A stretch of 18,515 bases of DNA from the NCBI RefSeq assembly GCF_006345805.1, contig NW_021824484.1, forward strand, positions 1 through 18,515, given 5' to 3'. This document shows positions 8,956-18,018 of this stretch, one piece after another; within the stretch, counting starts at the first letter, position 1, and each line of letters opens with the position of its first letter. Under the pieces are notes generated by a model. That model made no database searches, was not told the origin of the DNA, and saw nothing but the letters and a program-made list of their open reading frames with translations. Position numbers and translations under genes: made by a program. This stretch comes from Octopus sinensis (lineage: Eukaryota).

Positions 8956-9435
8956 CTTCGTGGTGGAATTCTAGGATCTGAGCAGAACGTGCAAAATTTT
9001 GGCTACGCATGATTTGTACCTCTTTGATCCCTTTACATATGGGGTAGATTTCATCACGATACTCCACTTGATTGTACGTGGTGTGCAGTCAATCTTCAGA
9101 TATTGCACATGACAGACCAACTTAGTGGCTTTATTTTGGGCGATCCGAAATGTAGGGCAAATGCAAGCCCATGAACAAATATTCTGTTCTACTCTAGGCA
9201 CAAGGCGAGAAATGTTGAGGGAGGGGACCAGTTGATTAGATCGACCCCAGTGCGTAACTGGTACTTAATTTATCGACCGCGAAAGGATGAAAGGCAAAGT
9301 CGACCTCGGCGGAATTTGAACTCAGAACGTAAAGATAGACGAAATATCGCTAAACATTTCGCCCGGATTGCCAACGTTTTTGCCAGCTCGCTGCCTTCCC
9401 ATGAACAAATATTGTCGAACTGGAGGACACCACCC
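8956..9435 (-). mobile_element. Penelope-like element 2: GIY-YIG endonuclease C-terminal fragment, interrupted by a SINE
   Basis: ORF 8971-9201(-) contains TFRIAQNKATKLVCHVQYLK..TIKWSIVMKSTPYVKGSKRYKSCVAKILHVL, homologous to the endonuclease tail at 3400-3560 (S.YVW.LK..I.W.I....PY..G.KRC.LC). Confidence 0.72.
9184..9397 (-). mobile_element. SINE family A, full monomer with a perfect 16-bp TSD
   Basis: CCCATGAACAAATATT at 9168-9183 and 9398-9413; single core, intact head and tail. Confidence 0.95.
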
Positions 9436-9898: not shown

Positions 9899-9939
9899 TA
9901 TTCAACCGGTTTTCGTCATTGTATAACTTGTCAAGAATA
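9899..9939 (-). ncRNA. Minimal type I hammerhead ribozyme-like motif, U3-A8 variant
   Basis: UAUUC-UUGACAA-GUUAU(ACA)AUGAC-GAAAACCGGUU-GAAUA: 5-bp stem I, 5-bp stem II, palindromic stem III, one extra A in the GAAA run, AAUAAA immediately downstream. Confidence 0.65.
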
Positions 9940-10579: not shown

Positions 10580-11742
10580 ATGTTAAGTTGTGTTTGGAAT
10601 TTTTCAATAAAGAGATTCTCCTTGTTAATTCTCTCCTGTGTGGTGATCCCGTCTTTACATTGGTAGAAGGGGAATATATAATTTGGGGTTTAAGTCTCTA
10701 GCACATGAGTCTAAGTGGTCACTCAGTGGAATTTGTGGGTATTCCGGGAGATTTATTTGTTCTTTATGACCGTTACGTTTACGTAACGGGAGACTTGTTT
10801 GTCCAACATAATTATGTTGCAACCAGCGCATGTGAGAACGTAGATAAGGTTCTCGGAGGAACAGGAGAAGTTAGTCTTGATTTTAAACTTCGTACCTTGT
10901 TTGAGGTAAATTCAGAGCCTTCAAGTAGAAAGGGGCAGGTACCACAGTTTGAGCGTGCACATTTTTTTACTGTTGGGGGTGGATGTGGTGTGTGAAGTTT
11001 GGCATTTGTCAAGAGTTTTTTAAAGATTTGTGTTGCCTTTTGCATTTGAGGATTTTGTGTGTATTTATAATGTTTTTCATTTTTGGGTCTGTTGACAGTA
11101 GACTGAGGTTTTGTATGATTGTGGTGTATGCTTCGATATTTTTGGGGTTGTGGGTGGAAATGTATGGAAGTATTTTGAGGTTGTGTGTGGTGTTAGGTTG
11201 GGTGGTTTTCAGTGTAGTGTTGTCTAGTTCTTTGGCGCGTTTTATTCCATACTCTATAAGGTGGAGGGATATTGATGTTGTAATAGTGTTTCTTTGAGGT
11301 CTTGAAGGGCATTTTCTCGTGTTTTTGGATCCGAGACAATGGTGCATACCCTTTTAGCTAGATTGAAAGGGATATTTGTCTTGTGTGTTTTGGGGGCATG
11401 AACTAAAGAGGGGTATTGTTGTGAGTCTGTAGGTTTGTGGTAGATGTCTGTTATGATTTGGTTCTTAGGTGTTTTTATAATTAGGAGATCAAGGAATGGG
11501 AGATGATGTTTGCTTAATTCCATAGTGAATTGGATGTTGGGATGTATGTTGTTTAGTATGGTTTTGAATTCCAGGAGTTTTTCATAAGGTTCTTTCCATA
11601 TGATGAAACAATCATCTAAATACCTTTTCCAGTTTTCCATTAGGTAGGTGTGGAAAACATGTCCAAATTTCTGGCTTGATATTTCATAGAGTGACAGTTC
11701 GAAGTAACCCATTATGAGGTTCGCAAGGACTGGTGCAGCCTC
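10580..11742 (-). pseudogene. Frameshifted PLE reverse transcriptase / GIY-YIG endonuclease
   Basis: AAPVLANLIMGYFE, WKRYLDDCFIIW (catalytic YxDD), HPNIQFTME, LPFLDLLI, TDIYHKPTD, NIPFNLAKRVCTIVSD; linker KKCARSNCGTCPFL; endonuclease SENLIYVLTCAGCN../NYVGQT..H..PLSDH..ENLFIEKFQTQLN. Several short indels. Confidence 0.93.
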
Positions 11743-11757
11743 TATATCTATATATAT

Positions 11758-11816
<59 letters not shown>

Positions 11817-11855
11817 TGTATATATGTGTGTGTGGCGATGAGTATGTGTATGTAT
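11743..11855. repeat. (TA)n / TG microsatellite at the truncated 5' end of PLE 3
   Basis: Direct inspection. Confidence 0.95.
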
Positions 11856-12233
11856 GCATTCATGGGCAGGCATATCTATGAATGCACATATACACACACA
11901 TGCACTCACACACAGATGGAGATATGCTTTCGGTCAACAATGGAGAGATATAGGCAAAAAAAAACAACAACAAAAACTAATTAAATCTTTGTCTGTACTT
12001 CTCCGTCGCATCTGTTACTTATTATCATCAGCATCACCGTCATCGCCATCATCATCACAGTAATTACGACACGAAGTTAGTTGTATTTATTGTGACTTCT
12101 GGAAAATGTTCTTGTGGAAGTCCTAAGTATTGTTTTGTTTCGGTGCGTGTGTTTATAAATTCTTTTAATCTTAGAAAAATTACCATTTCTAAATCTCCTA
12201 ACAAGAGATATTCAGCAACAGTACTTTGGAGTA

Positions 12234-12573
12234 AAGATTGTTTGCCAACATAACATGGCAGTCCTGGTTTAGGACGAATGTTGCTGTAATTTAGCCCCAT
12301 GAGACATCGTCTCCAGCTGGCTATACGACATGATCTGTGTCCCTATATTTTCGAACAAGGGAATCTAGCACCCCCACTCAACTCAAAATAACCCAGAAAT
12401 CGCGATACACAGATATTGTTTTGAGCTGAATGGGGGTGCTAAATTCCCTTGTTCGAAAACATAAGGACACAGATCGTGTCGTACAGCCTGCTGGAGACGA
12501 CGTCTCCTGGGGCTAAATTACAGCAACATTCGTCCTAAACCAGGACTGCCATGTTATGTTGGCAGCCAATCTT
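12234..12573. mobile_element. Foldback / MITE-like element: 158-bp inverted arms with a 24-bp spacer
   Basis: 12234-12391 vs reverse complement of 12416-12573: 13 mismatches and no indels by manual alignment. No clear TSD, so the superfamily is unassigned. Confidence 0.88.
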
Positions 12574-12702
12574 CTTTTAATCTTGTTCGGTATTTCTCTC
12601 CTTCCATTCTTCAGTCTCTCTCAGTTGGGTAACTTTCAGGATTTACTTCTGTAGTTGTAGGCTTTGTTTCGATTACCATTCACACACATGTATGTATGTA
12701 TT

Positions 12703-13848: not shown

Positions 13849-14010
13849 ACATCACCATCATCATCATCATCATCTTAATCTCTGATGAACACCATCACTA
13901 TCACAAAAAACACGGTCATCATCATCACCATCGTCATCATCATCGTCGTCGTCGTCATCGTCATCGTCATCATCACCATTCATCATCATCACCATCATCG
14001 TGGTCATCAT

Positions 14011-14041
<31 letters not shown>

Positions 14042-14425
14042 ATACAACTACAACCAGAACCATTGACATCATCACCATTCTCACCGCCATCGCCAACATC
14101 ATCATCAGCACCACCACCACCACTACCACAACCATCCTCCTCCTCACCATCATCACCACCACCATCATCATCATCATCGCCATCACCATCACATCTGTCC
14201 CCGCCTCCTCACCATCTCCACCTACTTGATAAAAAATGGCGTGTGCCTGGAGCGTTGCATTAAACTCGTCTCATCTGTTTCCTGCTTACCGTACGCCATG
14301 GCTTCAGTCCATGTGCTTTTTCCTTCCCCCTCCGCCTCAACCTCACTTCCTCACCCGCTTCCTCCTCCCGCTCCTCCTCCTCCTCCTCTCCCCTTATCTT
14401 CCTCCATGTCACTATCATCATCATC

Positions 14426-14457
<32 letters not shown>

Positions 14458-14528
14458 CTTCAACATCATCATCATCATCATCTCATCATCATCATCATCA
14501 TCATCAACATCATCATCAGCATCATCAT

Positions 14529-14575
<47 letters not shown>

Positions 14576-15030
14576 CCACCACCACCACCAGGATTATGAT
14601 GATCGTGATGAGCATCGTAGTCCTCCTTGTCTTCTTCCTGATCATTATCATCATCAACATAGCCCTCCTCCTCGCCACCACATCATCATCATCATCATCA
14701 TCTGCATTCTCCTCCTCCTCCTCCTCGTCATCATCATAATCATCACCATCTGCAGCAGCAGCAGTAGGGGTGGTCACTGCTGCATTTAGAATAGAATAAA
14801 TTAAACTTCACACGCTTCTTATCTTCCCCCTTCGTCTCCCCACCACCATCATCAGCAACGCCACCAACGGTAACCACACTATGATAACAACAGTAGAAGC
14901 ACCACCACCACCACCACCACCACCACCACCACCCATACTATTACAACAATCATCATGACCACAACCAACACTATCACCATCACCAACCCCGCATTTAATA
15001 CCACAACCACCCATACCACTACGACAACGT
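13849..15030. repeat. Long degenerate trinucleotide field (CAT/CAC/CCT/CGT)
   Basis: Blocks at about 13849-14222, 14335-14765 and 14835-15030; source of the poly-H/I/S/M/D ORFs. Confidence 0.92.
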
Positions 15031-15149
15031 CGAATATGTATGTATGCATGTACGTACATACATACATACATACATACATACATAAATACATACATACATA
15101 TATACATACATACATATATGTATATGAAAGAATGGAGTTGAACGACGAA

Positions 15150-15267
15150 TTAACAAAATTCCTTTATTTTCGACATATGTTTCGAAGGCTGCATATTCCT
15201 AATTGCGAAGGAATGAGGAGTACATTATGTCGCTTTCTCATCAGGAAAAGCAAGGAACTTATGTCAA
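15150..15267 (-). ncRNA. Type I hammerhead ribozyme with canonical core
   Basis: On the - strand: AAGUUCCUUGCUUUUC-CUGAUGA-GAAAGC...GCCUUC-GAAA-CAUAUG-UC-GAAAAUAAAGGAAUUU. Core at 15238-15244 and 15180-15183; GUC cleavage triplet with the cut between 15172 and 15171; palindromic stem III ACAUAUGU; 16-nt stem I with a 2x2 internal loop, extendable by 6 bp. Confidence 0.85.
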
Positions 15268-15483
15268 CATCAAAATGCACAAAGAACTTTTAGATGATTG
15301 CTCACACGGAGCCCATACATACATACATACATACATACATACATACATACATACATACATACATGCATACATACATACATAAAGTTAATCCAAACATGAA
15401 AACTCAAGAGAAAACACAACAACGCGAGGACGTGGAACAAGTATAGTATTATTGGACGCTCAGGAAGGAAGGGAAGAAAGAGG

Positions 15484-15518
15484 GTTTTAGGTTTCGAGCG
15501 GAGCTCTTCGTCACAAAC
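15484..15518 (-). ncRNA. Degenerate minimal hammerhead motif
   Basis: GUUU-GUGACGA-A-GAGC(UCC)GCUC-GAAA-CC-UA-AAAC: stems I and II are perfect, C3 is replaced by G, and stem III ACCU is one change from the palindrome ACGU. Confidence 0.6.
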
Positions 15519-15721
15519 ATAGGAAAAGGAAAGATCCAAGGAAGGGAAGACGGAGGAAAAAAAATCGCCAACGGTACACACGCAGTCACATTTTGAATCA
15601 CATACATACATACATACATACATATATACATACATACATACATACATACACACACACAACACACACATATGTACATATATATCATGAAATAACTGTTACT
15701 TTCTCAGATGCAGCACGGAAT

Positions 15722-15772
15722 TTTGTCAGTGAAGAGGTCGCGGTCTAAAAGCGACGAAAATATTTTGGCAGA
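15722..15772 (+). ncRNA. Degenerate minimal hammerhead motif
   Basis: UUUGUCA-GUGAAGA-G-GUCGC(GGUCUAAAA)GCGAC-GAA-AAUAUU-U-UGGCAGA: 7-bp stem I (2 GU pairs), 5-bp stem II, palindromic stem III, C3 replaced by G. Confidence 0.5.
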
Positions 15773-15855
15773 TTAAATTTAAATGTTGAAGTGGAATCTA
15801 ACGGTTTTTGTGTGTTCTTAAATGGCTCATAAACTCTTTCCACGCTGCAATTGTT

Positions 15856-15877
15856 TATATATATATATAATATATAT

Positions 15878-15971
<94 letters not shown>

Positions 15972-16004: not shown

Positions 16005-16180
16005 TCTCTGTGTTTGTCCCTCCACCCATCGCGCTTGACAACCGTAACTTTGTGGTTCGGCAAAACAGACCAATAGAATAAGTACGAGGTTTACAAAGGA
16101 TAAGTCCTGGGGTTTATTTCATAGACTAAAGGCGGTGCTCCAGCATGGCCGCAGTAAAATAACTGAAACAAGTAAAAGAA
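16005..16180 (+). mobile_element. SINE family C, 3' half
   Basis: Matches 17825-18018 (GGTTCGGCAAAA..ATAGAATAAGTAC..AAGGCGGTGCTCCAGC.TGGCCGCAGT..ACTGAAACAAGTAAAAGA). Confidence 0.9.
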
Positions 16181-16306
16181 TGAAAAAAAGATATAAAAGA
16201 ATATATATATATCGATGCTATTATGCAAAAGTGTCGTAAGTCCAGAATGTTGCTTTTTCAGAAACCGAAAAAATAGTTTCACCATTCCATAGCAAAACGG
16301 TTGTAC

Positions 16307-17064: not shown

Positions 17065-17100
<36 letters not shown>

Positions 17101-17264
17101 CGATGGGTTTCTTTCAGTTTCCGTCAACCAAATCCGATTACAAGGCTTTGATCGACCCGAGACTATAGGAGAAGACACTTGCCGAAGGTGTCACGTAGTG
17201 GGACTGAACCCGGAGTCATGTGCTTGTGAAGCAAGGTTCTTACCACACAGCCACGCCTGCGCCT
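17034..17264 (-). mobile_element. SINE family C, 5' half
   Basis: Reverse-complement match to 17622-17840, including the head and the internal microsatellite. Confidence 0.9.
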
Positions 17265-17280
17265 GTATATATTTATTTTA

Positions 17281-17621: not shown

Positions 17622-18018
17622 AGGCGCAGGAGTGGCTGTGTGGTAAGTAGCTTGCTAACCAACCACATGGTTCCGGGTTCAGTCCCACTGCGTGGCATCT
17701 TGGGCAAGTGTCTTCTGCTATAGCCCCGGGCCGACCAATGCCTTGTGAGTGGATTTGGTAGACGGAAACTGAAAGAAGCCTGTCGTATATATGTATATAT
17801 ATATGTGTGTGTGTGTGTTTGTGTGTCTGTGTTTGTCCCTCTAGTATTTCTTGACAACCGATGATGGTGTGTTTACGTCCCCGTCACTTAGCGGTTCGGC
17901 AAAAGAGACCGATAGAATAAGTACTGGGCTTACAAAGAATAAGTCCCGGGGTCGAGTTGCTAGATTTAAGGCGGTGCTCCAGCGTGGCCGCAGTCAAATG
18001 ACTGAAACAAGTAAAAGA
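17622..18018 (+). mobile_element. SINE family C, full-length tRNA-derived SINE with an internal TA/TG microsatellite
   Basis: A box TGGCTGTGTGG, B-box-like GGTTCAGTCCC, CORE-like CTTGGGCAAGT, internal repeat at about 17785-17825, A-rich tail. Confidence 0.92.

Follow-up and report, generated by a model that had tools for sequence, protein, structure and literature searches.

Hammerhead-bearing ends of three Penelope-like element families, probably gathered by successive insertion, in a microsatellite-rich cluster of Octopus sinensis

Three sequence islands in an 18,515-nucleotide stretch of Octopus sinensis DNA (contig NW_021824484.1, forward strand; the whole stretch is called the window) are, with high confidence, hammerhead-bearing pseudo-LTR (pLTR) ends of three autonomous Penelope-like element (PLE) families with a preference for TA-rich DNA, likely brought together by successive insertion. 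The cluster is a pile-up of PLE ends in microsatellites, an already known bias, and no new system. An earlier note on this DNA had put the islands forward as its best candidate for an undescribed system; this claim is withdrawn, as the islands are ends of autonomous PLEs and the microsatellite bias of PLEs is published (PMC8557442). Likely undescribed are two features of family 3, its natural G3-C8 hammerhead core and an extra G at the starts of its short copies. Statements on published work refer to the available parts of the cited sources.

Layout of the cluster

The non-repetitive islands lie at 15126-15313, 15381-15599 and 15683-15856 and are separated by CATA/CA/TA tracts, as the earlier note had described. 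Its statement that they are not tandem copies also holds: the best BLAST match between islands has E 0.14, so the islands are unrelated, and each is treated here as the representative of its own family (families 1, 2 and 3; Table 1). The description of the islands as strung on one microsatellite tract had to be given up, because 15600-15682 is upstream sequence of element 3 itself: window positions 15600-15856 align to a long family-3 copy with 91.5% identity over 259 columns from 15600, and the tract between islands 2 and 3 is therefore element DNA. Identity to the nearest siblings is 97-98% for island 1, 93-95% for island 2 and 91-95% for island 3. At its 5' junction (to 15317), island 1 and the host tract have TATG in common. 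Immediately to the left, the cluster borders on (ATC)n/(CAC)n trinucleotide repeats that extend over about 1 kb (13916-14960).

Table 1 Features of the cluster in window coordinates. Strand is given as +, - or. (none assigned).
Feature	Position	Strand	Remarks
(TATG)n/(CATA)n tract left of island 1	15036..15120	.	Left end is a fold-back; may be the 5' end of element 3
Island 1, 5'-truncated pLTR end of Hydra-type PLE	15121..15313	-	Apparently youngest; ends at first of two 3'-end clusters
Intact type I hammerhead, island 1	15159..15257	-	Long stem II, palindromic stem III, core CUGAUGA from 15244
(CATA)n spacer between islands 1 and 2	15314..15380	.	Probably split continuation of the element 3 tract; low complexity
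Island 2, solo pLTR of Neptune-like PLE	15381..15598	-	From A of Inr-like TCATTC to the fixed 3' end of the family
Degenerate minimal hammerhead, island 2	15484..15519	-	C3>G at 15514; G>C breaks the stem III palindrome
Single G beside island 2	15599..15599	-	Mismatches element (C) and host repeat phase (A)
CATA/CA tract of element 3	15600..15682	+	Between ORF stop and pLTR in full-length copies; island 2 landing site
Island 3, pLTR end of Neptune/Nematis-type PLE	15683..15856	+	Apparently oldest; first of two 3'-end clusters, then (TA)n
Putative family-3 transcription start	15706..15706	+	A of TCAGAT; short copies with extra G pile up here
Minimal hammerhead scaffold, island 3	15721..15773	+	8-bp stem I, 5-bp stem II, palindromic AAUAUU, U17 at 15765
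(TA)n host target, element 3 3' junction	15857..15934	.	

Hammerhead scaffolds and family cores

At E<=1, Rfam matched no hammerhead in the window; what it returned were miRNA families, resembled by microsatellite sequence. Islands 1 and 3 were recovered by a relaxed type I scan. A strict minimal hammerhead (min-HHR) scan, in which stems I and II, a palindromic stem III, and a Watson-Crick 3-8 pair all had to be present, gave three matches in a 400-kb background sample (40 evenly spaced genome places), all in the three families, and 0, 0, and 0 matches in three shuffles. Applied to the islands, it passes only island 1; the window copies of islands 2 and 3 have G3 opposite G8. The earlier note had assigned one hammerhead to each island (two on the minus strand, one on the plus strand), which is right for the type I scaffold and wrong for the strict motif.

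Stem I of the island 1 hammerhead pairs 15249-15245 with 15171-15167 and is extended by a distal helix; cleavage is predicted from the modelled fold after C17 at 15172. The copies in islands 2 and 3 are both predicted to be inactive, the former from the changes listed in Table 1, the latter from G3-G8 in place of the G3-C8 of its family core (GUGAACA). In family 1, CUGAUGA is intact in 36 of 39 examined copies. Family 2 has CUGACGA (40/81) or the U4C variant CCGACGA (32/81), and family 3 GUGAACA (80/94) or GUGAAGA (9/94), so counted among examined copies. At family level all three families have the minimal type I hammerhead core, with a Watson-Crick 3-8 pair, GAAA, and UH, together with stems I and II and a palindromic stem III. 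Covariation was scored for family 1 in seven sequences, a small and related set, on a structure drawn from the window copy: 90.9% of cells were paired and 6 of 29 pairs had changed on both sides, versus 39-47% paired and 0-1 pair changed on both sides in slid-structure controls. The minimum-energy fold of a family-3 sibling has stems I and II formed and the core open. Computed cofold energies are lower for the dimer than for a pair of monomers (differences of 8.1, 4.2, and 1.9 kcal/mol), in a fold other than the catalytic one.

The G3-C8 pair is the rule in family 3. Among the first 100 of 5,932 matches to a second core pattern of this family, 96 are G3-C8, 2 G3-G8, 2 C3-C8, and 0 C3-G8, and copies with an intact ORF carry G3-C8. 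A chromosome-local subfamily (G000:C20; L093, L095, and others; loci are numbered L) forms a starred branch of 10 long copies in the family-3 tree, and several of its members are G3-G8, which suggests spread after loss of the core pair. The natural 3-8 covariant reported in the cited passages is U3-A8 (PMC3088659; PMC4209133), and an engineered C3G/G8C double change partly restores cleavage (PMC11167929; PMC8495972). In the available text of the literature searched, no natural G3-C8 hammerhead was found, only engineered ones (PMC11167929, PMC8495972, PMC3884650). The repeat annotation of Octopus vulgaris counts Penelope-like families and, in its available part, leaves hammerheads unmentioned (PMC13282606).

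Copy number

Exact 23-24-nt core patterns match the genome (2.72 Gb, microsatellite-rich; about 5% of the 400-kb sample lies in TA/CA/CATA runs) 814 times for family 1, 9,620 times for family 2, and 5,344 times for family 3. Reversed-pattern controls gave 0 matches, so that the high copy number of the islands is not due to chance. Scaling by the share of examined copies with the exact core (28/40, 36/86, and 60/121 for families 1, 2, and 3) gives about 1,200, 23,000, and 11,000 copies, respectively, estimates that come from biased samples. Distant relatives of family 1 (73-81%) occur at three places in the 400-kb sample.

Parent elements

Whether any island copy is attached to an RT/GIY-YIG ORF had been raised in the earlier note; attached copies were found for all three families, with parent DNA 96%, 88%, and 86-91.5% identical to islands 1, 2, and 3, respectively.

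In the family-1 parent L092, two island-1 copies enclose an RT ORF (582 aa) and a GIY-YIG ORF (310 aa); in L030 the island tail runs straight into the RT frame. In the L092 protein RWL and DKT are present, CCHH is absent, and CxxC and CxH surround the conserved E and N of the endonuclease (EN); the CxCX5C linker was not located in the family-1 parent. These protein motifs match the description of the Hydra clade (Craig et al. 2021, PMC8557442, section 11), which likewise has RWL/DKT, no CCHH, CxxC/CxH, a hammerhead (HHR), and (TA)n insertion, and they point to a Hydra-type PLE; in this motif-based comparison the family-1 ORF differs in being longer, with an Asn-rich insert. Long Asn-rich inserts are seen in PLE frames of L092 (4019-4951) and L141 (1210-4341) and are also present in rotifer Penelopes (PMC3846280).

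Long copies of family 2 were located with an upstream query from L054. Upstream of the island, the parents L118 and L120 have decayed pieces of RT, of a C-x4-C-x2-C linker, and of GIY-YIG. In family 3, L137-L140 have open frames of 793-1,042 aa with the island about 0.9 kb downstream, the 1,042-aa frame of L137 containing RT and GIY-YIG; in L093 and L095 the island is linked to RT and EN pieces. A long CA/CATA tract lies between stop codon and island in the long family-3 copies. Translations of family-2 and family-3 parents contain a CX2-5CxxC linker and CCHH in EN, as in the clades Neptune and Nematis, where the linker likewise precedes a GIY-YIG domain with CCHH and a microsatellite bias is also found. 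By likeness of motifs, family 2 would be a Neptune-like PLE and family 3 a Neptune/Nematis-type PLE; the Neptune label of family 2 is in part our assumption from RT motifs.

Partial tandems, in which pLTRs flank the ORF or one continues into it, occur in L092 and L030 (family 1) and in L139 and L130 (family 3), and none was seen for family 2. Pfam returned nothing relevant for the L092 frames and the window PLE remnants, and GIY-YIG and RVT_1 only below threshold for the other parents. A PDB sequence search with the family-1 RT gave 0 matches. One parent element has its best protein match, at 57% identity, in an entry labelled Octopus vulgaris.

Other elements in the window

The earlier note counted PLE RT/GIY-YIG remnants three times in the window. 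This number is reduced to one clear remnant and one weak one. The clear one (10582-11859, minus strand) is a Neptune-like PLE of a fourth family with RT thumb, linker, and GIY-YIG, and contains a TA tract at 11743-11825; downstream of it, at 9899-9939 (minus strand), lies a hammerhead-like remnant with a U3-A8 core and a palindromic stem III. The weak one (8980-9153, minus strand) matches the family-1 EN frame with 34% identity over 59 aa (E 0.002) and is possibly an old PLE fragment. As parents of the islands these remnants were rejected, with no DNA match to the parents and 28-38% protein identity; that the window's own remnant mobilised the islands likewise found no support. A MITE-like element with long terminal inverted repeats is found at about 12222-12575, and SINE-like dispersed repeats at 17075-17271, 17667-17804, and 16160-16212; L092 also carries insertions of the latter, in the stretch that separates its first pLTR from the RT frame.

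Targets, 3' junctions, and stacking

Among top-hit copies, (TA)n with n of at least 8 follows the 3' junction in 24 of 28 (family 1), 27 of 29 (family 2), and 13 of 29 (family 3), versus 3.7% of background positions (113,966 in all), an enrichment with p<1e-11 for each of the families. The family-1 count was made with L030 as reference, L030 and the window copy being left out; with a tail reference whose own sequence continues into a microsatellite, the count is 11 of 29. In position-ordered samples (TA) follows in 17/30, 11/30, and 16/30 copies, which are lower bounds because x-drop end mapping stalls at small indels; some of the 5' ends mapped in this way are subfamily divergence. The enrichment in microsatellites that the earlier note had suggested looking for is thus present. 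It had also named, as a possible refutation, that the islands be ends of autonomous PLEs and lack such enrichment: they are PLE ends, with the bias published (PMC8557442), and their junctions are enriched in TA.

The 3' ends of family 1 fall into two clusters, at about +5..+28 and +168..+175, and those of family 3 into two at about 0 and +57; family 2 has one fixed 3' end. Two such clusters, separated by a tail, have been explained by two internal RT start sites (PMC11167929), and a microsatellite bias has been published for Neptune, Naiad, and Hydra PLEs (PMC8557442).

Head-to-head inversions are frequent in families 1 and 3, in line with the inverted, 5'-truncated copy that EN+ PLEs can have at their 5' end. 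Among position-ordered loci an inverted neighbour lies within 400 bp in 10 of 27 family-1, 12 of 26 family-3, and 0 of 28 family-2 loci. Another of the three families is present within a 3-kb locus in 10 of 140 distinct loci (expected 3.1-5.4; p 0.0015-0.047) and within 150 bp in 4 loci (expected 0.6-1.0), the expectations resting on rough densities. Clustering across families is 2-3-fold above expectation, and the idea of a landing pad holds in modest form. A second stack is found in L025 (G000:C14:22511305-22514485, about 896-1681), in the order 2, inverted 3, 1, with short TA tracts in between. In L232, families 1 and 2 are 17 bp apart.

A chance neighbourhood of three abundant repeats with no common targeting is a very improbable account of the cluster. 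The families together amount to about 13-20 copies per Mb, and at the most generous density up to 0.7 triples would be expected in the whole genome; however, two triples were seen, the window and L025, the latter among 29 loci where 0.009 were expected, and the TA enrichment of the junctions given above speaks against it in every family. Of the two alternatives in the earlier note, independent insertion of PLE termini into AT/CATA microsatellites is the one that stands, on the evidence of the autonomous PLE ends, the TA-enriched 3' junctions, and the clustering across families.

Fixed 5' ends and the extra G

Few position-ordered copies (3/30, 1/30, and 1/30 in families 1, 2, and 3) reach more than 40 bp upstream of the island. 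At one base, preceded in the element by C or T, the starts of short family-3 copies pile up; the window copy of island 3 reaches upstream of this base. Where a non-templated purine stands before the pile-up base, G:A is 87:13 (first 100 of 735 matches), versus 28:72 at a control position four bases further in (first 100 of 101 matches; Fisher p 8e-18). The base outside the extra G is mixed (C9 T8 A7 G1 in 25 loci, two side-by-side pairs among them). Two sources of the G were tried and rejected: a common short 5' exon, as this -2 base is mixed in the 25 loci, and a subfamily with a templated G, as the upstream element sequence is absent in 24 of the 25.

In family 2 the start is the A of TCATTC, with 937 non-templated starts and T82 G12 A6 before it in the first 100; the dominance of T is mostly T from TA tracts, and island 2 in the window has G, which to judge from the sequence is likely cap-derived (15599). 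Family 1 has a looser 5' cluster near TCATTA, with an extra G in 2 of 5 cases, both at inversions. The extra-G signal is strong only in family 3. In all three families the 5' pile-up is at a TCA motif, a short distance upstream of the hammerhead. We take the extra G to be a copied cap, by analogy with L1, and TCA to be an initiator, by likeness to Inr motifs. So read, the extra G of family 3 likely marks a capped sense transcript that was copied from an internal priming site to its 5' end.

It is rather unlikely that the fixed 5' ends are ordinary truncations at microhomology or RNA structure, with the extra G contributed by template switching. This reading can draw on the many family-3 junctions that are fold-back inversions, several of them G junctions in which the inverted arm could supply the G, on the A or AT that family-2 starts have in common with TA tracts (T in 82 of 100), and on a second family-3 5' cluster 15 nt further in that has no G. 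Against it, the G is also found at non-inverted junctions in TA/AT-rich host DNA (L274, L279, L284, L289, and L290), non-templated starts are about 7-fold rarer at the control position and A-rich there, and the pile-ups of all three families are at TCA, which we assume to be an initiator. Copying of a capped transcript is the reading kept here.

At 15686-15707 (plus strand) family 3 has a branch-point-like sequence, a pyrimidine tract, and AG at the putative start, and the upstream CA/CATA tract may lie within a retained intron; in Penelope of D. virilis an intron end abuts the HHR (PMC4209133). No start or end pile-up was seen in the four contig runs covering the stretch, whose RNA nature is a guess. 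Nothing on point about capped or TSS-anchored solo PLE pLTRs was found in the literature searched. An antisense self-priming template model has been proposed for PLEs (PMC3846280).

Are the short copies a lineage of their own?

The second alternative of the earlier note, in which small non-autonomous ribozyme or retrozyme elements make up a family of their own, found no support: the loci sampled contain no head-to-tail arrays (one same-strand neighbour in 81 distinct loci), and short family-3 copies interleave with long ones. Two versions of it were weighed.

In the first, short copies are SINE-like, solo pLTRs transcribed from an internal promoter of their own and copied in trans by PLE protein; we regard this as distinctly unlikely. 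Short copies do far outnumber long ones, and they start at an Inr-like site, so that a downstream promoter could survive in them; non-autonomous PLE derivatives have been described (MRC1, PMC8557442). The family-3 tree (21 short and 32 long copies) gives no sign of such a lineage, however: the short/long label changes 14 times (about 16.7 times on average in shuffles), a single change occurs in 0% of bootstrap trees, there is no clade and no diagnostic column, and for 19 of the 21 extra-G copies a long copy is no more distant than another short one. A full-length capped transcript, moreover, would directly yield the same ends. Family 2 is less clear-cut. Its tree (18 short and 13 long copies) is partly clustered, with a starred branch of 9 short copies only and a mild clustering of the short/long label (19-20 of 500 shuffles as low); its parents were found decayed, yet there are about 9,600 exact cores; and sister subfamilies with other 5' sequences exist. 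The only contrasting column falls where the 3' ends are ragged. Of 30 position-ordered family-2 loci, about 12 differ by having other common upstream sequences and form sister groups; in L182-L211 these have the HHR region in common and differ in 5' sequence (L183/184/187; L192/195/198/203/204; L186/196). A non-autonomous sub-lineage within family 2 is possible.

The second version makes the islands non-LTR retrozyme monomers that the hammerhead processes to circular RNA and that are then reinserted. This is hardly credible. The size of 170-220 bp and the type I HHR would fit, and retrozymes have been proposed to derive from PLE pLTRs (bioRxiv 10.64898/2026.07.22.740005). Retrozymes, described in Cervera and de la Pena 2020 (PMC7229834) and in the same preprint, resemble the islands as short type I HHR units akin to PLE pLTRs, but are head-to-tail tandem repeats that yield circular RNA, whereas the present copies are solo or inverted and ORF-linked. 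Among the 81 distinct position-ordered loci sampled, a same-strand neighbour within 400 bp was seen only once, and there a microsatellite separates the two copies; the copies end away from the cleavage site, with the HHR in mid-copy; the HHRs are of the minimal PLE type; and all three islands are contiguous with ORFs in long copies. Ends of autonomous PLEs therefore remain the preferred reading for the islands.

Proposed mechanism and history of the locus

RT would start internally on a capped, pLTR-initiated sense RNA and run off its 5' end after about 150-220 nt; the cap would be copied as one extra G, giving solo pLTRs of fixed length, island 2 among them. Longer copies such as island 3 could derive from read-through tandem transcripts. 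The hammerhead would be a passenger in solo copies, a reading based on copies that span the cleavage site uncut and on two of the three window hammerheads being dead.

At the locus, a 5'-truncated family-3 copy, cut within its own CATA tract, would have entered (TA)n (junction at 15856). Family 2 would then have entered the CATA tract of element 3 in antisense, as a start-to-end solo copy, and family 1, the youngest, would have entered the same tract last, also in antisense, through the TATG microhomology at its 5' end. This order (3, 2, 1) rests on identity levels and low-complexity alignment.

Taken jointly, that solo pLTRs are strong-stop-like cDNAs of capped sense RNA and that family 3 carries an active G3-C8 hammerhead (about 6,000-11,000 copies) under selection is a proposition to which we give even chances.

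Comparison with known systems

The min-HHRs of PLEs described in PMC4209133 are like those of the present families: they lie in pLTRs flanking an RT and GIY-YIG ORF and have a short stem I and a palindromic stem III. Also common to both are G10.1-C11.1, an NUH site (including U17), and an extra base after position 9 (here in families 2 and 3), as well as the prevalence of solo motifs and the opposite-strand pairs 100-700 bp apart. The two differ in that a U3-A8 core covariant is reported there and G3-C8 is found here in family 3, and in that solo motifs are ascribed there to truncated PLEs, with ends unmapped in the available text. The Poseidon PLE of PAc (Frangieh et al. 2024, PMC11167929) likewise has two 3'-end clusters, AT-rich targets, and an HHR dispensable for insertion; its tail is 30-40 nt, versus about 57 nt in family 3 and about 150 nt in family 1, and the available text of that paper contains no TSS-anchored solo copies, cap-derived G, or natural G3-C8.

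Significance

PLE families that have TA-rich targets in common, one of them importing a microsatellite of its own, provide inserts that seed later inserts. The pair G3-C8, in about 96% of family-3 copies, would be a third natural 3-8 pair beside C-G and U-A, and hammerhead scans requiring CUGA would miss it. Its maintenance, as far as sequence comparison goes, suggests that a PLE hammerhead was once selected for its catalytic activity. The cap-like G, present in hundreds of copies at one fixed start on the sense strand, speaks for capped sense templates and gives a candidate start site; it thus bears on which strand serves PLEs as template and on how their 5' ends form. If the joint proposition above is true, selection would have acted on a G3-C8 ribozyme that is not needed for insertion itself, and hundreds to thousands of genomic copies would preserve an in vivo record of where transcription of each family starts, which strand serves as its template, and where its priming sites lie.
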